The notes under the pieces are model-generated. The model was not told where the DNA came from. It ran no database searches and worked only from the letters and a program-made list of their open reading frames with translations. DNA of 41,828 nucleotides, taken from IMG/VR virus record IMGVR_UViG_2541047798_000006. One strand, 5' to 3'. The position numbers and the translations under genes were made by a program. This document shows positions 3,482 to 33,555 of this stretch, piece after piece. The DNA is from a virus (lineage: Duplodnaviria; Heunggongvirae; Uroviricota; Caudoviricetes). Position 1 is the first letter of the stretch. Every line of letters begins with the position of its first letter.

Positions 3482-6400
3482 TCAGCTAATCGTGATGCCT
3501 GTAGTGGCTTTCTTCATCACCACAACCAGCAAATCGCTGATACTTGCTGTGGGATACCAGTTATTTACCAGCCATGCTGACACCGAAAACTCCAGTGTCA
3601 TGTGACCGTGACCGGCAGGCATATCAATAACGCCACTGTAAATCAGCGTATTATCCAGCGCGGTACGGTTATAAATTTCAGCACCGTTTTTCCGCACTAT
3701 CAGACGGCATGAGGAGTAAATATCAGTATGCTCTTTCTCATGTTTAGCGCCGCTGAATGCCACCGCCGGAATAACAATCTGCCGGTCAAACGGCTGATCG
3801 TCATAAACCCTGACGGTAATGGTTCCTGATGGCCACCGCTCCGGTGCACGGGAGTCCCGGGGGAAAGCTTTGCCCACTGTTTTAACGAGATCGCCTTCAA
3901 TCTGGTTCGCGGACAATTTTCCCAGAACCCGACAGTTCTCGTTAATCGTGACGTTGTTGAGCGTCCCGGAGTTCGCATTCACGTTACCGCTGATATCGGC
4001 ATTTTTCGCCGTCAGCCGCCCGTCCGGTGTCAGGGAAAATGCCGGAGGATTACCGCCGCTGGTAATGGTGGGGGCCGTCAGGCGTTTCAGGAACACTTCA
4101 TTCATGAATATCTGATCGCCCTGACCAACAAACATCGGCTTTGTGTTGCCATTCGCAGGATTAATCATCGCAATCCTGTCTGCTGCCAGCAGCACCTGAC
4201 TCTGCATGCCGTCAGGGGTGTTCTCAATACCGGCACCGATACCCGCAATATAAAGGCGTCCGTCCTGCATCTGCTGCAGCTTCACTGCCCACATGCTGTT
4301 CAGGTTATTATTTGTATCAACCTGAACCTTCTGTATCTGCTGGATCGCTGCACTCTGGTCTTCCAGTTTCTTATTGACGGTCTGTGTTATTTCATTGCTG
4401 ACATCCGTTATGGACGTCCTGATTTCAGTCAGGTCAGGCGCAAGCTGACCGTTATCAATCTGCGTCCACAGCTCCTGAGCCAGATGGGTTTTCCCTATCT
4501 CGCCTTTGAAAAAATCCAGATAGCCTGATGCATCATCACTCGGCTGACCGACAGCCTCCACGAATGCCGATTTGCCAACGGTGTTCACACTGCGAACGTA
4601 AAAATAATAATCATGGCCCGGTTTGATATTGATACTGGCGGCTATCCAGTACAGTGCCGTACCAAGATAACGCGCGCTGGTTTCAACCTGCCTGATATCC
4701 GCAATCCGTTTTTCCGAGAACCAGAACTCAAACTGTACCGTCGGATCATAAACCGCAAGATGCGGCGTGGCGGTTATCTGAAAATAGCCCGGCGTCAGCT
4801 CAATCCGCGACGGTGCTGCCGGTGCGGCAATCCGGAATGATACCGACGCCGGATCACCCTGCTGCCCCCAGGCATTTACCGCCCTGACTGTCAGCCTGTA
4901 GTTTCCCAGCGCCAGTTGCCTGAAGCGGTATGTGGTTTCCGTCGTCCGGGCCGTGCTGACCAGCCGCTCACTGCCGTCATCCGCTGCCACGGTCAGGCGA
5001 AGCATAAAGCTCACCCCCTTCACCACCTTCGGCGTATCCCAGCGCGCCAGCACCTGGTATTCCCCGCTGTCTGCGGTGACTTCTGCGGTCAGGTGCTGCA
5101 CTGCTGGCGGCGTGACACCGTTCACCGTTCCGCTCTGGTCGCCGTCAAAGTGCGCCCCGTTATCCACGATGGCTTCTTTCTCCGGCACATGCTGCACGGC
5201 AGTGATGGCATACGTGCCGTCATCGTTCTCACGGATACTCACACAGCGGAACAGGCGCTGGCGCAGCGTCGGCAGCTTCAGCCCCCATACGCTGTATTCG
5301 GCAACACCGTCAGGAACACGGCTCACTTTTACCTTCACGCCGTCGGTGACGGACTGAACCTCCACGCTGACCGGATTGCCACTTCCGTCAACCAGGCTTA
5401 TCAGCGTGGTACCGGAGGATGGCAGCGTGATTTCACGGTCGAGCGTCAGTGTCCGCGTCTGGCTGTTCACCGCCAGCACGCGCCCGCCGATGCTGATACC
5501 CGCATAGTCATCATCACAGATTTCAATGACATCGCCCGGTACATGGCGAAGCCCTTCTGCACCCACGCTGAAGTCCACGGTCTGCGTTTCCAGCAGCTCC
5601 GTTTTAATCAGCCACAGCCCGGCGCGGTGTGCCTGCCCCCGGCTGGTACAGCCAAAGGCATCCATCTTCGTGACGTTACGACCGTAACGGAGAATGGCCT
5701 GCGTATCTTCAACAAGCTCTGTCGCCGTCTCCCAGCCGTTATTCGGGTCAATCCAGTTCACCTCAACGGCATTATGGCGGTCCTTCAGGGCGCTGAAGCT
5801 GTAGCGGAACGGCGCGCCATCATCCGGCATCACCACATTACTGCGGTTATAGGTCCACACCTTATCCGACGGTCGGTCCTGCACGAACGTCAGCGTCTGC
5901 CCGTTCCATACCGGCATACAGCGCATCGCCGAGCAGAAATCACTGAGAACATCCCACGCCTTACGCTGTGTGGTCAGGTAGGCATTACAGGTGATGCGCG
6001 GCTCCGTGCCACCAAAGCCATCCGGCACTGACTGATCGCAATACTGGCCGATGACATACAGCGCCCATTTGTCCACATCCGCCGCACCAAGACGTTTCCC
6101 CATGCCGTAGCGCGGGTGGGTCAGCATATCCCACAGACACCAGGCCATGTTGTTGCTGTATGCCGGTTTAAACGTCCCGTCCCAGATACCGCTGTATTGC
6201 CGCGTCTGCGGGTTATAGTTCGATGGCACCTGCAGAATGCGCCCGCGAAGATGATAATTACGGCTCACCTGCTGGCTGCCGAACTGTTCCGAGTCCACCT
6301 GCACGCCGACCAGTGCCGTGTTCGGGTAGCACTGTTTCACATCGATGATTTCAGTGTATGACGACCAGAGCGTTTTGTTCTGCAGCTGGTCTGTGGTGCT

Positions 6401-6961
6401 GTCCGGCGTCATCCTGCGCATCCGGATATTGAACGGTCGCGGCGGCAGGTTATCCACCACCACCGAGGCCAGATACTGCGACGTGGTTTTGCCCTTAATG
6501 GTGATGTCTTTTTCCGTCACCCAGCCACCGTTACGTTGTATCTGAACCAGCAGGCGGACTTCCGACGGATTCCGGTCACCCTTTGAGGTGGTTTCCACCA
6601 GTGCCTGCACACCGAAGGTAAAGCGCAGACGGTCGATGTTTGCAGACGTGATGGTCCGGGTGATCGGCGTGTCGTATTTCACTTCCGTACCCAGCACCGT
6701 CTCGGAACCGGAGGATTCAAATCCCTCCGGCGGTGTCTGCTCCTGCTCACCTGCCCGGAACACCACCGTGACACCGGAGATGTTGGTATTCCCCTCACTG
6801 TCCAGCACCGGTGTACTGTTCAGCAGCACGCTTTTTAATCCATCCACCGGACCTTCAACCGGCCCTTCGCTGATGGCATCGATCACACTCAGCAACTGCG
6901 TGGACTTCAGGTTGTCCTTCGCTTCGCGCGGGGTATGCCCCTTACTGCTTCCTTTACCCAT
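3482..6961 (-). CDS. J: Central tail fibre / host-specificity protein J
   Basis: 1159-aa [24 protein letters not shown]... collinear with lambda J. It follows I. Confidence 0.95.
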
Positions 6962-6983
6962 TCCTCACGCTCCATAAATGACA

Positions 6984-7003
6984 AAACCGCCCGCAGGCGG
7001 TTT
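6984..7003 (-). other. Conserved I-J intergenic hairpin (terminator-like)
   Basis: AAACCGCC-CGCA-GGCGGTTT palindrome followed on the minus strand by TTTTGTCATTT. The same element is in lambda as I recall. Confidence 0.4.
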
Positions 7004-7021
7004 CACATAAAACATTTTGCA

Positions 7022-7693
7022 TCAGCGACCAATCACCACAACCTGACCACCGTCCCCTTCGTCTGCCGTGCTGATCTCCTGAGAAACCACGCGTGACCCC
7101 ACGCGCATTTCCCCGTACAGAACAGGCAGAACATTGCCCTGGGCAACCATGTTATCCAGTGAGGAGAAATAGGTGTTCTGCTTACCGTTATCCGTTGTCT
7201 GTGTACGGGGAGTTCTGGCTTTCGGTGCCAGCATCTGCGCCACACCACCGAGCACCATACTGGCACCGAGAGAAAACAGGATGCCGGTCATACCACCGGC
7301 CCCAATGGCTGCCCCCCATGCTGCAAGGGTGGCTCCGGCGGTAAAGAATGATCCGGCAATGGCGGCAGCCCCCAGGACAATCTGGAATACGCCACCTGAC
7401 TTGGCCCCGGCGACTCTGGGAACAATATGAATCACAGCGCCATCAGGCAGAGTCTCATGTAACTGCGCCGTTAACCCGGACGTGCTGACGTACCGCCCGG
7501 CAATCCGTACCTGATACCAGCCGTCGCTCAGTTTCTGACGAAACGCAGGGAGCTGTGTGGCCAGCGCCCGGATGGCTTCGGCCCCCGTTTTCACACGAAG
7601 GTCGATGCGGCGGCCAAATCGTTGTAAATCCCCGTAAAGGCAGATGCGTGCCATGCCCGGTGACGCCAGAGGGAGTGTGTGCGTCGCTGCCAT
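7022..7693 (-). CDS. I: Tail assembly protein I
   Basis: 223-aa ORF MAATHTLPLASPGMARICLYGDLQRFGRR... matching lambda gpI, with a Gly/Ala-rich hydrophobic middle. Confidence 0.9.
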   Translation of the reverse strand: MAATHTLPLASPGMARICLYGDLQRFGRRIDLRVKTGAEAIRALATQLPAFRQKLSDGWYQVRIAGRYVSTSGLTAQLHETLPDGAVIHIVPRVAGAKSGGVFQIVLGAAAIAGSFFTAGATLAAWGAAIGAGGMTGILFSLGASMVLGGVAQMLAPKARTPRTQTTDNGKQNTYFSSLDNMVAQGNVLPVLYGEMRVGSRVVSQEISTADEGDGGQVVVIGR

Positions 7694-8334
7694 TTGTCGG
7701 TATACCTCTCTCGTTTGCTCAGTTGTTCAGGAATATGGTGCAGCAGCTCGCCGTCACCACAGTAAATGGCGGCATGATTCGGCACAGATGAACCAAAACA
7801 GCACAGCAGCACATCGCCCGGCTGCGCCGCTGACAGCGGCACCTGATACAGCCCTGCGGCCTCCAGATTATCCAGATAGAGATTCTGACCGTTACGCCAC
7901 CAGTCATCCTCACGATGAAAATCCGGCATCTCAATCCCCGCCAGATGGTAAGCATCCCGGAACAGCGTGTAACAGTCCGTCACCCCGTGCTCAAAGAGCC
8001 GCCCGGTGAGATGCGGCACACAGCGGAATTTATGAATCGCCCCCCGGCAGACCAGCCACCACGGCAAATCACTCTGCACCTGCAACCGCCGGTCGGCCTC
8101 ACTCAGCCAGGGCAGACCACCGGGATGGCTGTGCACCAGCGCCACAATCTCACCCTGCATTTCTGCCCGCAGCCAGTCCTCCGGCGACATCCGGAAATAC
8201 GCCTCCGGCTCACCGGAGATATTTACGCAGGGAAGATATCTGTCTCCCTCCGGCGTTCTCACCACAAAGCCGCACGACTCCGCTGGCGCACATCGCCGGG
8301 CGTGCGCCAGAATCGCTGATTCTGTCTCTGTCAT
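7591..8334 (-). CDS. K: Tail tip assembly protein K (MPN/JAB + NlpC/P60-like)
   Basis: 247-aa ORF starting 5 nt after L. It has an HSHP metalloprotease-type motif, matches lambda gpK, and its 3' end overlaps I by about 100 nt. Confidence 0.9.
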   Translation of the reverse strand: MTETESAILAHARRCAPAESCGFVVRTPEGDRYLPCVNISGEPEAYFRMSPEDWLRAEMQGEIVALVHSHPGGLPWLSEADRRLQVQSDLPWWLVCRGAIHKFRCVPHLTGRLFEHGVTDCYTLFRDAYHLAGIEMPDFHREDDWWRNGQNLYLDNLEAAGLYQVPLSAAQPGDVLLCCFGSSVPNHAAIYCGDGELLHHIPEQLSKRERYTDKWQRRTHSLWRHRAWHASAFTGIYNDLAAASTFV

Positions 8335-22832: not shown

Positions 22833-22889
22833 AGCAATTTAGATAATCGTGCAGACTACGCCCCCTCATATCACATGGAAGGTACTACA

Positions 22890-23300
22890 ATGGCTCAGGT
22901 TGCCATTTTTAAACAAATATTCGATAAAGTGCGAAATAATTTAAACTATCACTGGTTTTATTCTGAACTAAAACGTCACAATGTTTCACATTACATTTAC
23001 TATTTAGCCACAGAGAATATTCATCTTGTTCTTGAAAACGATAATACGGTTTTAATAAAAGGACAGGGTAAGGTTGTAAATGTAAGATTTTCAAAAAATA
23101 AATGCCTTATAGAAGCCACCTTAAAAGGATTCAAATCAGGAGAGTTATCATTTTACGAATACAGGAAAAATCTTGCTACAGCAGGGGTTTTCAGATGGAT
23201 TACAAATATCCACGAAAACAAAAGGTATTACTATACCTTTGATAATTCATTACTCTTTACTGAGAACATTCAGAACACTACACAAATATTTCCGCACTAA
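22890..23300 (+). CDS. YbcV-like protein (DUF1398 family)
   Basis: [45 protein letters not shown]... resembles E. coli YbcV as recalled. GGAAGG lies 7 nt before the ATG at 22890 (the track start at 22875 is an alternative). Confidence 0.7.
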
Positions 23301-23607
23301 ATCATAACGTCCGGTTTCTTCCGTGCCAGAACCGGACTCGCTGGCATGATGAAATATGTGTACCCGGTAACCCCGGTGTGCATCGTTTTTGATTATTCCC
23401 CCACACTTGTGCAGAAGGAGTTCCCCGTCAGGCTACAGTCATAATTAATGCAAGAGTACAGCGACGATACAGCGCACAGAAATAAATCAGGTATCCATTG
23501 ACTTCACAAAGACGGTGCATAGCATCGACAGGAGTAATTGCGTAAATTGAACTCTTGGCACACTTTAGCCACCGGCGAATCTTCAGCGGATTATCCTTGG
23601 CCGGTTT

Positions 23608-30946: not shown

Positions 30947-31102
30947 TTACTCCTCAGGTTCGTAAGCTGTGAAGACAGCGACCTCCGTCTGGCCGGTTCG
31001 GATTCGTACCTCGCAGAGGTCTTTCCTCGTTACCAGTGCCGTCACTATGACGGTTAAACAGATGACGATCAGGGCGATTAACATCGCCTTTTGCTGCTTC
31101 AT
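30947..31102 (-). CDS. hok: Hok-family type I toxin (HokD/RelF-like, 51 aa)
   Basis: MKQQKAMLIALIVICLTVIVTALVTRKDLCEVRIRTGQTEVAVFTAYEPEE with AAGGAGAAG SD. The upstream leader begins GGTGCTTGAGGCTATCTGCC (about 31269), resembling the hok mRNA 5' tac element. An upstream in-frame ATG at 31159 is in the mok position. Confidence 0.85.
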   Translation of the reverse strand: MKQQKAMLIALIVICLTVIVTALVTRKDLCEVRIRTGQTEVAVFTAYEPEE

Positions 31103-31312
31103 AGCCTGCTTCTCCTTGCCTTTCGGCACGTAAGAGGCTAACCTACATGTGTCTAGCATGAAATTGGCCTCAGATTAATGTTAAGCGTCTTGCAGGACGC
31201 GTAATGTTAACTGGGGCTTTTCTCTATCTGCCGTTGGTGTTATGCCCGAGGCAGATAGCCTCAAGCACCCGCAGCCATTCTACTTAACTACCGTTACCTC
31301 GCCAATGTGAAA

Positions 31313-31402: not shown

Positions 31403-31566
31403 CACAACCTCCTGTATTGGACGTACACCAGTCCTGATGAATATGAGGCTGTCTCGTCAGTGATTCAATACAACTATTGGGTATAGTTTCTCTGATTTTT
31501 TCTGTGGAAATGGGGCTCAACCACTAGTCATTTAATACGCAAAGTCCGATACAAGCTAACCTTCTA

Positions 31567-31590
31567 GTCCGCTTTGAGCGAAAAGCGGAC
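31567..31590. repeat. Hairpin GTCCGCTTT-loop-AAAGCGGAC, downstream boundary of the NUDIX-HAD cassette
   Basis: 9-bp perfect stem. The stem sequence is shared with the hairpin at 33033-33056. Confidence 0.7.
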
Positions 31591-31650
31591 GTTGGAAGTT
31601 TAAAACTCGCGAACTACTCAGCGTCCATTGATGCGTATTGTGTAACGTGA

Positions 31651-32289
31651 TTAACCACAGATGATATTGAAACGTTCTCCGGAAATCTTGACCATAATGT
31701 CAGACAGTTCGCTGACGGCATGGGCTTCAGATGATCCCAGAGCGTCAGGCTGAACAGCTATTACCGAAGCTCCACTTGCCAGCCCTGCTTTTATACCCGC
31801 AGATGCATCCTCAAATACCACGCATTCACCAGGCTCAAGGCCCAAAGCCAAAGCTGCTTTGATGTAACCCTCGGGACTTGGTTTTCCCGTCATTACATCT
31901 TCTGCACACACCATTACTATGGGTAAGGGGAGATTAGCCGCTTTCATCCTGTTTTCTGCAAGCATTCTGCCTGCAGAAGTGACAAGTGCCCAGCTATCCG
32001 GTGGCAGTTTTGATAAGAGTGCAGCGGCCCCTTTTACTTCAGTAACGCCTTCTGTCATGTTGATTTCAACCTCTTCGAGTGAGGCCGCGATTTTATTGGT
32101 TTTCTCACCTGCACCAATAAAATGCGTCAGTGTATCAATCGTTTGCCGCCCGTGTGCGTAAGCAATCACAGCCTGAGTATCAAGACCGTATTCTGCACAA
32201 AAATCTCTCCAGACGCTTTCCACTACGGCTGTTGAATCAACCAGCGTACCGTCCATATCGAATAAAAAACCCTTAGCGTTGAATATCAT
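31651..32289 (-). CDS. HAD-superfamily (subfamily IA) phosphatase, YfbT/HxpA-like sugar-phosphatase type
   Basis: Motif I FDMDGTLVDS, TSA(G) motif II region, GKPSPEGY and FEDASAGIKAG motifs. Collinear with E. coli YfbT as recalled. AAGGA SD 6 nt before the ATG at 32289 (the track start at 32295 is an alternative). Confidence 0.85.
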   Translation of the reverse strand: MIFNAKGFLFDMDGTLVDSTAVVESVWRDFCAEYGLDTQAVIAYAHGRQTIDTLTHFIGAGEKTNKIAASLEEVEINMTEGVTEVKGAAALLSKLPPDSWALVTSAGRMLAENRMKAANLPLPIVMVCAEDVMTGKPSPEGYIKAALALGLEPGECVVFEDASAGIKAGLASGASVIAVQPDALGSSEAHAVSELSDIMVKISGERFNIICG

Positions 32290-32318
32290 TGCCATTCCTT
32301 AATGGTTGCAGAAGAAAG

Positions 32319-32957
32319 TTAATCAAACCATGTTTTTTCATCACCTTTCGCTACTCTCAGGCTGACAGCAATCTGCTCAGGCACAATTCTTGAAAGCGAC
32401 AATTCAGGCAGGTCGTTGACATCAAAAAAATCAGCATCGAGTGACTCATGGCTGATTGACAGGCTGCCACCTACTTCTTCACAGAGAAAAATCAGCTTGT
32501 AAACATGCCAGGGTAAAGGCGGATGGCCGTGAAGATTACGATCCCAAACTCCCAATAGTTTAGTCACTCTGACTTTTAATCCGGTTTCTTCTTCGACTTC
32601 TCGACGCACAGCTTCAGAAGGTGTATCTCCAACATCTGCCCATCCGCCAGGAAGACTCCATAATCCATCTGCAGCCTCTTTCACCATCAGAATACGATTA
32701 TTACGCAGGATAAACGCACGCACATCTGTTTTGGGCGTCGCGTAACCCGTTTCCGATACATGAAACAAATCATTGCGGCTAATATCAAACTGCGAACTCA
32801 GCAGTCCAGCGGCAATTTCACGCAAGGCTTCATAGCGTTCCTTGTCAAAGACGTCTTTTGAATAGGTCAGGCCTGACTGCGCGAGGGCCTTTAGTCTCTG
32901 GGCAACAAAAATAAGCTTTTCTTGGGTCAACACTTCAGACATGTTTTTCATCTTCAT
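32319..32957 (-). CDS. NUDIX hydrolase with N-terminal helical extension (ADP-ribose pyrophosphatase-like class)
   Basis: Nudix box GGWADVGDTPSEAVRREVEEETGL (G-x5-[ED]-x7-REVxEExGL), preceded by about 85 aa of a Nudix_N-like region. The start codon is uncertain among ATGs at 32957, 32951 and 32942. Confidence 0.85.
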   Translation of the reverse strand: MKMKNMSEVLTQEKLIFVAQRLKALAQSGLTYSKDVFDKERYEALREIAAGLLSSQFDISRNDLFHVSETGYATPKTDVRAFILRNNRILMVKEAADGLWSLPGGWADVGDTPSEAVRREVEEETGLKVRVTKLLGVWDRNLHGHPPLPWHVYKLIFLCEEVGGSLSISHESLDADFFDVNDLPELSLSRIVPEQIAVSLRVAKGDEKTWFD

Positions 32958-32983
32958 TTATGTATTCAGAGTTCCTGTTAAGG

Positions 32984-33012
32984 ATACTGCTCAATTCAAT
33001 GAAGAATAACAA
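32984..33012 (-). promoter_or_regulatory. Candidate promoter of the NUDIX-HAD cassette (TTGTTA-17-CAGTAT)
   Basis: Minus-strand TTGTTA (33012-33007), 17-nt spacer, CAGTAT (32989-32984). It lies between the upstream hairpin and the NUDIX start. Confidence 0.3.
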
Positions 33013-33032
33013 ATGCATCTGGCACCTGCTAT

Positions 33033-33056
33033 GTCCGCTTCTGGCACAAAGCGGAC
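33033..33056. repeat. Hairpin GTCCGCTT-loop-AAGCGGAC, upstream boundary of the NUDIX-HAD cassette
   Basis: 8-bp perfect stem with the same sequence as the stem at 31567-31590. Confidence 0.7.
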
Positions 33057-33153: not shown

Positions 33154-33555
33154 TTATCCCTGATAAAATGCCAGTATGCGCTGCATAACTTCACTCATCC
33201 GGCACTCGCGACAGATTATGTTTAGGCGACTGTCGTAGCGACGTATTTCTCCATCAGGTAACGACCAGATAAGGTCCGGATCAACCACAGCTGTTTTCTT
33301 CACCTTTGCCCTCGATAGTTTTTTGCGGGCGTTTTGCCAGTCCTTACGCGCCTGTTCAGACGGGAATAACCCGTAGCCGGAGTTGTATACATCGCCACTG
33401 GCTACCAGCTCTCTGGCAAGAACGCTCATCAGATATCTAGTCGCACCTGTTTTAGCTTCCAGTTGCCGTAACGTCTCACGACCGCTCTGGCGCACGAGTT
33501 CCACCACCTGCCCTTTAATTTTTTCCCGCTCTTCTTGTGTAAAAACTTTTGCCAC
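33154..33555 (-). CDS. Hypothetical 133-aa protein in the P (helicase-loader) position; not lambda P-like
   Basis: ORF directly downstream of the O-like gene. The N-terminal region looks winged-helix-like (ETLRQLEAKTGATRYLMSVLARELVASGDV). No DnaC or lambda-P similarity recognised. Confidence 0.55.
   Translation of the reverse strand: MAKVFTQEEREKIKGQVVELVRQSGRETLRQLEAKTGATRYLMSVLARELVASGDVYNSGYGLFPSEQARKDWQNARKKLSRAKVKKTAVVDPDLIWSLPDGEIRRYDSRLNIICRECRMSEVMQRILAFYQG

Follow-up and report, generated by a model that had tools for sequence, protein, structure and literature searches.

A palindrome-bounded NUDIX–HAD gene pair as exchangeable cargo of lambdoid and P2-like phages

The IMG/VR record IMGVR_UViG_2541047798_000006 is a tailed-phage sequence of 41,828 nucleotides (the whole stretch is called the window below) from a Qin-like lambdoid prophage of Escherichia coli. 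Positions 31567–33056 of the window hold a 1.5-kb cassette in which two minus-strand genes, one for a NUDIX pyrophosphatase and the other for a phosphatase of the HAD-IA type, lie inside a pair of hairpins. This region is 100% identical to the chromosome of E. coli AR_0017. We report that the same unit, with the same ends, is found in P2-type phage backbones, and we consider what the hairpins are, how the unit is exchanged and what the two enzymes may do for a lysogen.

The minus-strand gene order is O, DUF977, the cassette, hokD, rem, a 92-residue open reading frame (ORF), DUF968/ydfU, rusA and Q. The slot is framed by two conserved backbone genes that lie outside the cassette: the DUF977 gene upstream (33154–33555, minus strand) and the hok/mok-type toxin ORF hokD downstream (30947–31159, minus strand). 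Read from the DUF977 side, the cassette consists of the upstream boundary palindrome, of "B" type (GTCCGCTT CTGGCACA AAGCGGAC, 33033–33056), a leader of 75 nt, the NUDIX gene (32319–32957, minus strand), an intergenic gap of 23 or 29 nt, depending on the HAD start chosen, with an AAGGA Shine-Dalgarno sequence, the HAD gene (31651–32295, minus strand), a trailer of 60 nt, and the downstream boundary palindrome, of "A" type (GTCCGCTT TGAGCGAA AAGCGGAC, 31567–31590). The two hairpins have identical 8-bp stems and folding energies of −16.4 and −13.8 kcal/mol (z about −3.5). They are the only two matches to their pattern in the window, and 100 shuffles gave 0. An earlier reading of the bare sequence (the original prediction) had described the co-directional pair and its spacing, the same-stem hairpins and the flanking order from an O-like gene to hokD, rem, ydfU and Q; all of these are confirmed. 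The G+C content of the cassette is 0.464, compared with 0.515 for the window.

The leader includes a candidate sigma-70 promoter, TTGTTA-17-CAGTAT (32984–33012, minus strand), about 20 nt 5′ of the NUDIX start, with its −35 element at 33012–33007 and its −10 element at 32989–32984. The motif is present, as had been claimed, but it matches the consensus at only 4 of 6 and 3 of 6 positions and scores too low for the promoter scan, which reported 0 sites where 2.5 were expected; we regard it as putative.

The NUDIX ORF encodes 212 residues, or 207 from the Met that homologues use. The N-terminal extension predicted for it is a helical domain, Nudix_N (PF12535; residues 14–61, 7.6e-18), and is followed by the NUDIX domain itself (Pfam PF00293; residues 77–184, 7.9e-19, 68.4 bits against a cutoff of 21.1). 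The protein aligns over both domains, residues 19–204, to PDB entries 3q1p, 3q4i, 6nch and 6nci (E 7e-50), and it matches 4hfq at E 2e-37. The first four entries are the CDP-Chase of B. cereus and the last is the UDP-X diphosphatase of S. pneumoniae; these are the prototypes of a subfamily characterized by an N-terminal helix bundle, asymmetric homodimers, a second, 3′–5′ RNA exonuclease activity and diagnostic motifs (PMC3655063). The characterized substrates of the subfamily are CDP-choline and UDP-sugars/UDP-MurNAc (PMC3655063). Its motifs are G-L-x-Y..D..ar-D-x-(E/D)-R-ar in the N-domain, LPxLS, and the NUDIX signature G-x-ar-sm-(E/D)-U-x2-(S/T)-x2-E-x3-K-E-U-x-E-E-x-G-U (PMC3655063). In the window protein, GLTYSKDVFDKERY and LPELS fit the first two motifs. 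Its NUDIX box, GGWADVGDTPSEAVRREVEEETGL, has D where the general box has its first E, which the subfamily signature allows, and departs from that signature only in a K-to-R change. By its motifs and structural matches, the protein belongs to the CDP-Chase/UDP-X diphosphatase subfamily. It is like the two prototypes in two-domain architecture, length and motifs, and differs from them in the K-to-R change and in having a HAD phosphatase as a partner. The subfamily has been stated to be confined to Gram-positive bacteria (PMC3655063), whereas the window protein comes from Enterobacteriaceae and their phages. Contrary to that statement, thousands of NUDIX homologues are found in Enterobacteriaceae, e.g., in Cedecea, Leclercia and Pantoea.

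The HAD ORF encodes 214 residues. The likely start is the second ATG, at 32289, which gives 212 residues, is the RefSeq start and has a better-placed AAGGA Shine-Dalgarno sequence than the ATG at 32295. The protein carries FDMDGTLVDS and matches HAD_2 (PF13419; 2.2e-22, 80.5 bits) and TIGR01509 (58.9 bits, cutoff 29.4). All four catalytic motifs are readable (DMDGT, LVTSAG, GKPSPE and FEDASAG), and these motifs and a collinear HAD-IA fold are shared with E. coli YfbT/HxpA and yeast Gpp1. The best PDB match is 2qlt, a yeast glycerol-3-phosphatase (2e-22), and the best NCBIfam match is PRK11587/NF008610, the "sugar phosphatase" YfbT/HxpA. The expected HAD-IA enzyme of about 212 residues, collinear with YfbT/HxpA, is thus there. 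However, the score of 188.3 bits does not reach the equivalog cutoff of 282, so the protein is a paralogue rather than YfbT itself. It belongs to PHROG 8468 and is probably a phosphatase of the sugar- or glycerol-phosphate type.

The cassette moves as a unit, with the hairpins as its ends. A phage genome search found window positions 31566–33056 in the P2-like phages P24C9 and 10W, hairpin to hairpin, at 99.3% identity. There, the cassette sits between the tail-fibre assembly gene G (gpG) and the sheath gene FI (gpFI), i.e., in the Z/fun slot, the site of fun(Z) in P2. In viral contig L098, it adjoins a P2-type replication gene A and a dam methylase gene, and the break again falls at the hairpin. 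The lambdoid DUF977-hokD slot holds it in 11 more viral contigs. In all 13–14 copies across these three backbones, neither ORF is disrupted, and identity is 99–100%. Whether the NUDIX gene, the HAD gene and the hairpins travel together had been posed as a question; the occurrence of the same hairpin-to-hairpin cassette in two P2-type slots answers that they do. The whole cassette is present in 19 of 5,426 complete E. coli genomes, the flanks of the slot in about 1,260–1,290, and the cassette was not found in PLSDB plasmids. A second cargo, LysR-SDR, is likewise found in more than one setting: it occupies the gene-A-side slot in contig L015, the same slot that holds the NUDIX–HAD cassette in L098, and it stands beside a NUDIX unit in L250, a palindrome-delimited array. 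In phage 11W (L002, NC_070902.1), positions 4100–5340 contain many N or ambiguous bases over the NUDIX–HAD region, where the record lists the genes as nothing more than misc_features. A "degraded" cassette in this phage, suggested by a BLAST coverage of 34%, was rejected as an artefact of the N-masked bases.

The DUF977-hokD interval had been predicted to be an exchangeable slot, and a catalogue of its occupants bears this out: at least nine different cargos bounded by the palindromes are found there. They include a two-gene block of unknown function (JNE21-003, L004), an opposite-strand DUF7380/DUF4209 protein (EC1722-1, L005), a two-gene block in UTI89 (L265), a 356-residue protein (L066) and a four-gene block with adenosine deaminase, Ham1 and ThsA-like SIR2 genes (L033). 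The further proposal, that this is a slot for toxin–antitoxin or defence genes, is right in that defence-like genes are among the alleles (NsnA/GmrSD_N, ThsA-like SIR2 and DUF4365), but too narrow, as the palindrome units also carry metabolic and regulatory cargos (LysR-SDR, LysR+GNAT, NmrA+HxlR and glyoxalase). The L033 cargo merits a separate remark. It is a palindrome-bounded block of 3.5 kb (L033:1793–5305, DUF977-side lambdoid slot) with a TetR-like ORF, the adenosine deaminase (PF00962), the Ham1/ITPase (PF01725) and the ThsA-like SIR2_2 protein, and it looks like an undescribed nucleotide-targeting defence candidate; its PADLOC matches are at the domain level only.

In the Qin prophage of K-12, homology with the window stops just past hokD, and relE-relB come directly next. 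The cassette had been placed at the spot where Qin carries relBE. That is correct as a map position, but relBE is not an allele of the palindrome-bounded unit: K-12 relBE was rejected as such a unit, there being no intact palindrome pair and only degenerate copies that bracket flxA. These degenerate copies (GTCCGCTT TGTGCCAG GAGCAGCC and TTCCGCTT CTTGCTCT TAGCGGAC; L252:4982–5996) lie at 4982 and 5973, and the first falls within the annotated ydfV ORF.

Where exchange takes place can be read from the junctions. At the hok-side joint, flank-GTCCGCTT-T-GAGCGA is common to nine cargos, and all differences start from position 16 of the 24-mer. At the DUF977-side joint, TGGCACA-AAGCGGAC and the adjoining flank are constant in five cargos, with differences at positions 8–9 only. 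When the same cargo is compared between a P2 and a lambdoid backbone, the differences are confined to the outer arm and the adjoining base, and in the junction alignment the similarity between the window and P24C9 ends inside the outer arm of each hairpin. That is, the outer arm follows the phage backbone, as at 33033–33056, and backbone-linked polymorphisms lie there; the inner arm follows the cargo, and cargo-linked polymorphisms lie there or at the final base of the loop. Because polymorphisms split by arm at both joints and in the P2 comparison, the exchange point is inside the palindrome, most simply in its central 6–8 bp. Apart from the palindrome, the lambdoid and P2-type slots have no sequence in common. 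In both phage families, each side keeps its own type of centre, one with GAGCGA, the other with GTGCCA/TGGCAC. A synthetic empty site (flank-palindrome-flank) was found in 0 of 1,259 flank-bearing E. coli genomes and in 0 viral contigs; it follows that cargo is replaced, not inserted and excised.

The hairpins are members of a family of repetitive extragenic palindromes like REP/BIME. A scan for the exact stem found at least 120 loci in viral contigs, and the scan of species-representative genomes gave 120 listed loci, a lower bound, to which the genome figures below refer. About 140 chance matches are expected for 16 fixed bases in 596 Gb, so single genome matches were not trusted, and loop consensus, clustering and shuffles were used instead. 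The asymmetric loop consensus Y-S-N-G-Y-S-R-N is present in 73% of the genome matches and 80% of the viral matches listed, against 1.5% of random 8-mers. The profile from 305 unique oriented copies is 28 bp long, AT-GTCCGCTT-TGGGYCAA-AAGCGGAC-AT. It has perfect inverted arms of 11 bp around an asymmetric centre of 6 bp, and the flanks beyond 2 nt are unconserved. The genome loci are mainly from Alphaproteobacteria and Xanthomonadales, plus one Pantoea. In their 824 kb there are 363 copies (at most 3 mismatches), compared with 1 in shuffles, and 86 of the 120 loci have at least two. Only 27% of the copies lie inside ORF-like stretches, which make up 81% of all bases, and the distances between neighbours peak sharply at 45 and 91 bp. 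Many proteobacterial genomes have palindromes beside almost every gene. Among the viral loci listed, the hairpins bracket many unrelated cargos, and doublets of palindromes 40–45 nt apart, back to back, are the junctions of adjacent units. The high copy number comes from the proteobacterial genome loci, not from E. coli; in the E. coli material examined, the palindrome is found only at the borders of phage accessory genes.

Like REP, BIME and REPIN elements, the palindrome is short, stable, extragenic, high-copy in some genomes and clustered with fixed spacing (45/91 bp, and 40–45 bp in the phage doublets). It differs from REP/BIME elements in having no GTAG-type head and in its A-T flank consensus, and its sequence is presumably unrelated to that of the E. 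coli REP. No Rfam family matches the hairpin, whether in the window or in dense arrays. The 11-6-11 geometry and the side-specific centres resemble the layout of tyrosine-recombinase core sites of the dif/lox type; no recombinase recurs within 3 kb. Comparable systems include integron cassettes with their attC sites, the pdif modules of Acinetobacter, heterospecific-lox cassette exchange and the T4-type PeSL "mobile regulatory cassettes". As in those systems, there are discrete units with short conserved sites, back-to-back arrays (L119 and L250), differing centre types at the two ends, and units shared between unrelated replicons. In contrast to them, the palindromes have no GTTRRRY core or IntI nearby, their arms are, as we take it, unlike E. 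coli dif, and the slot is never empty. An integron attC site was therefore rejected, the 28-bp profile being without RYYYAAC/GTTRRRY cores and no integrase recurring nearby. IS200/IS605-type ends were also rejected, and a dif/Xer site seems unlikely, since their defining cores are missing from the profile.

Several further observations concern palindromes elsewhere. The genome loci (L126–L245; e.g., L200, L235 and L153) hold up to 15 palindromes per 8 kb in Pseudolabrys/Xanthobacteraceae and other Alphaproteobacteria, and at 21 of them an ABC-type substrate-binding protein gene adjoins a palindrome. The palindrome consensus begins with ATG on both strands and may seed spurious ORFs (MSAL...KRT). 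In two viral contigs with palindrome arrays, the only Rfam matches, to isrK and C4 antisense RNA (P1/P7-type immunity RNAs), lie away from the hairpins, at L117:9212–9404 and L119:7457–7654. A unit of 1,513 nt between direct-orientation palindromes (loops TCGGTCAG and CCGGCCAG) is present in eight viral contigs with a G+C content of about 0.60 (L006, L014, L034, L042, L045, L061, L065 and L122); it holds three ORFs of unknown function, of 217, 149 and 83 residues. The window itself has a related hairpin, GTCCGGTT-TCTTCCGTGCCAG-AACCGGAC, at 23309–23337, just 3′ of a DUF1398 gene (22875–23300, plus strand) located between the small-terminase region and the lysis genes. This hairpin has a B′-type loop core, CGTGCCAG, and a C/G swap in the stem that keeps the pairing; it may be another such boundary.

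Boundaries of this kind have a precedent at the Z locus of P2. A search with the FI-side flank of P24C9 led to GenBank entries AJ512679–AJ512685, "Bacteriophage P2-ECxx proviral Z-region" (Nilsson, Karlsson & Haggard-Ljungquist 2004, Mol Biol Evol 21:1). In these entries, foreign ORFs with their own promoters, in either orientation, lie between two annotated repeats; the "left inverted repeat" ends exactly at a B′-type palindrome and the "right inverted repeat" begins exactly at an A′-type one. The Z-locus inserts of P2-EC45/46/58/67 share these palindrome boundaries, the P24C9 cassette has its palindromes where the annotated repeats have their inner ends, and the same boundaries hold for P2 fun(Z), the L-413C ORF and Wphi orf44. 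For the P2 Z locus, the notion of foreign DNA framed by conserved inverted repeats, perhaps with site-specific exchange, goes back about 20 years. Since the boundaries were partly recognized in 2004, the gain here is an extension, not a discovery. The NUDIX–HAD pair is absent from AJ512679–AJ512685, the cassette is also found in the lambdoid replication-to-nin slot and in the gene-A-side slot, and the repeat is identified here as a member of a 28-bp REP-like family spread across Proteobacteria. The literature searched, Nilsson et al. 2004 excluded, contains neither the NUDIX–HAD cargo and the sharing of units with the lambdoid and gene-A-side slots, nor the 28-bp consensus and its REP-like spread; recent work on P2/P4 hotspots makes no mention of hairpins. 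The cassette is, in short, a new cargo of a known phage-hotspot kind; what is added is the REP-like nature of the joints, their presence in two phage families at three slots, and a lambdoid slot that is never empty.

The relatives of the two genes bear on how the pair arose. NUDIX homologues of 68–74% identity (Cedecea neteri and Pseudescherichia vulneris) are solitary among ordinary metabolic genes, without a HAD neighbour, and a HAD homologue of 61% identity has no NUDIX partner. A NUDIX gene of 84% identity (L250/L251) forms a single-gene unit between two palindromes, and the HAD half is absent from L250. In L250 (positions 4229–8008 of a Logan SRR27258020 contig) and L251, this gene is part of a non-phage array of palindrome-delimited units, the others being LysR-SDR-73aa-Atu4866 and MazE-PIN. 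The second unit of L250 (LysR, SDR, a 73-residue ORF and Atu4866) and the cargo of phage contig L015 share 93% identity. Closer relatives keep the pair. Outside phages, it is adjacent, with a gap of 26–28 nt, in L253/L254 (NUDIX 80% and HAD 72% identical), where no palindromes are found, and, with 85% nucleotide identity, in L255, where the surrounding genes are accessory metabolic ones and a degenerate palindrome doublet follows the HAD gene but none precedes the NUDIX gene. The L253 pair (L253:1–4823) stands in a genomic-island context, beside a P4-type integrase, a second tyrosine recombinase (Integrase_1/Phage_int_SAM_2), LysR and MFS genes. The existence of this enterobacterial two-gene operon outside phages in palindrome-free form is consistent with an operon older than its capture as a palindrome-bounded unit. 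That the pair has stayed together in moderately diverged relatives speaks for functional coupling. The original prediction had named, as a point that would tell against it, the two genes being usually unlinked and chromosomal. This is so for distant relatives, whereas close relatives keep the pair even outside phages.

We propose that the cassette is a mobile, palindrome-jointed unit, swapped by replacement, whose enzymes would carry out a coupled breakdown of a nucleoside diphosphate derivative (NDP-X) and would confer a lysogenic-conversion trait. Taken as a whole, we judge this proposal somewhat likelier to be right than wrong. The palindromes act as joints for the swapping of cargo between backbones, with two crossovers, one per palindrome. 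The NUDIX enzyme would convert NDP-X to the nucleoside monophosphate and X-phosphate, X being a sugar or an alcohol, and the HAD enzyme would then convert X-phosphate to X and inorganic phosphate, a sequence predicted to be irreversible overall. In a lysogen, the pool of an envelope or nucleotide-sugar precursor would thereby be irreversibly lowered; such a drop may alter the surface or exclude phages, may benefit host metabolism, or may have no use. A pyrimidine NDP-X, i.e., a UDP-sugar or a CDP-alcohol, seems the more likely substrate than ADP-ribose because the substrates of the NUDIX subfamily are CDP-choline and UDP-sugars/UDP-MurNAc.

A number of points weigh against this proposal. Expression in the lysogen is putative only, given how weak the promoter of the cassette is. 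The substrate class is extrapolated from two Gram-positive enzymes that are about 50% identical, and YfbT-type phosphatases are reported to act on ribose-5-phosphate too, so that ADP-ribose may yet be the substrate. NUDIX–HAD coupling appears restricted to one lineage and could be incidental, given the unlinked homologues (NUDIX at or below 74%, HAD at or below 61%, and the single-gene NUDIX at 84%). As for exchange, no recombinase, transposase or integrase recurs by the palindromes within 3 kb, among 1,616 neighbouring ORFs; the neighbours that do recur are only backbone genes and an abundant alphaproteobacterial family of substrate-binding proteins. Among lambdoid prophages, moreover, swapping could use ordinary homologous recombination in the flanking backbone genes, and the palindromes are strictly required for the cross-family transfers only.

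Other readings differ on the hairpins or on the role of the cargo. That the hairpins are mere terminators or insulators of a moron, alike by coincidence or local duplication, is hardly credible. The stems are indeed stable, GC-rich and placed just outside the operon, but on neither strand does a U-tract come after them, and the terminator scan reports neither, so they are not terminators, and an intrinsic terminator role was rejected. Furthermore, the same 24–28-mer stands at the ends of dozens of unrelated cargos, across several backbones and hundreds of loci, and the homology breakpoints fall inside the hairpin. As a sufficient explanation, this reading is refuted. As for the classic moron architecture that had been read into the bounding hairpins and the promoter, the hairpins are REP/BIME-like exchange joints and the promoter is weak. 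The moron concept for lambdoid phages is that of Juhala and Hendrix. The cassette is like a moron in being an extra block between backbone genes, present or absent among collinear relatives, with lower G+C content and possibly its own promoter; it is unlike one in lacking an intrinsic terminator and a strong promoter, in its conserved palindrome-pair boundaries and in its never-empty slot. At the other extreme, the palindromes may be the sites of an unrecognized, enzyme-driven cassette exchange with two centre types (GAGCGA and GTGCCA) that spans the lambdoid slot, the two P2-like slots and the chromosomal arrays, with the NUDIX–HAD cargo giving phage exclusion through hydrolysis of UDP- or CDP-linked precursors. 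We think this combination quite unlikely; if true, such a dedicated system would be nature's counterpart to cassette exchange by heterospecific lox sites.

With regard to the cargo, the original prediction put forward counter-defence, in which the pair destroys immune signals of the ADP-ribose type or derived from NAD (Thoeris, NADase), the NUDIX enzyme cutting the pyrophosphate and the HAD enzyme dephosphorylating ribose-5-phosphate. NUDIX enzymes can in principle cleave such molecules, the best family match of the HAD protein is a YfbT-type sugar phosphatase, and the slot alleles include SIR2-type and other defence-like genes. Homologues of the NUDIX protein are labelled "ADP-ribose pyrophosphatase YjhB", and PDB entry 3o8s "ADP-ribose pyrophosphatase", but the former are automatic COG names and the latter a structural-genomics name, for a protein whose function a curated survey gives as "undetermined" (PMC5389931). 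The analysis turned up no positive support for counter-defence, and the subfamily assignment disfavours it. The pair has no similarity to known anti-defence proteins and is absent from the counter-defence literature searched, known NAD-centred counter-defences use unrelated enzymes, and the close homologues at 68–74% identity are ordinary, solitary chromosomal genes. The pair is, besides, carried by temperate phages, in slots whose tested cargos protect the host and are not anti-defence (PMC9122126). We consider this role very improbable. A defence or exclusion module is unlikely too, if less remote: by depleting a nucleotide-sugar such as UDP-glucose, it would deprive a superinfecting phage of its receptor sugar or of the donor for DNA glucosylation, so that the phage becomes restrictable. 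The action of the NUDIX subfamily on UDP-sugars speaks for it, as do the location matching that of P2 fun(Z), which blocks T5 according to its annotation, the defence genes in the slot, and the existence of HAD-containing hotspot systems with anti-T7 activity (PMC9122126). The NUDIX domain also matches the PADLOC candidate PDC-S07 weakly (6.6e-10, 36.8 bits), but the match covers the generic NUDIX fold only, and the HAD protein is unmatched in PADLOC. Constitutive depletion of a nucleotide-sugar would be costly to the host, homologues stand in non-mobile metabolic contexts, and the cassette is rare. Beyond the PDC-S07 match, curated models of known defence and anti-defence systems gave nothing, and the pairing is absent from the literature searched; PHROG 25541, to which the NUDIX protein belongs, is annotated as of "unknown function". 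The original prediction knew of no described phage system with this pairing, and none was found. The cargo may finally be a neutral or metabolic passenger, e.g., a house-cleaning pair, captured between two palindromes of a donor genome and without a phage-related role. This is a real, if doubtful, possibility. The palindromes of L250 delimit ordinary genes, and one of its units is also a phage cargo; other cargos (LysR+GNAT, NmrA+HxlR and glyoxalase) are of a similar kind, and the flanking of nearly every gene by palindromes in many proteobacterial genomes would supply such units. Against it, the ORFs are intact across the three backbones and the pair is maintained among relatives at the 72–85% identity level, which argues for selection on the pair. 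Taken together, conversion of host physiology or of envelope precursors, or a neutral passenger, account for the cargo with fairly good probability.

To our knowledge, the core genome of E. coli does not provide a cytosolic NDP-sugar or NDP-alcohol pyrophosphatase activity of this sort. If the proposed lysogenic conversion through NDP-X breakdown is correct, E. coli lysogens would gain such a pyrophosphatase together with a matching phosphatase. For the phages, one REP-like palindrome borders accessory genes in three hotspots as well as in chromosomal arrays. It is a simple search key for cargos, and it gives a sequence handle on the swapping of moron and defence genes between phage families that have no other homology.

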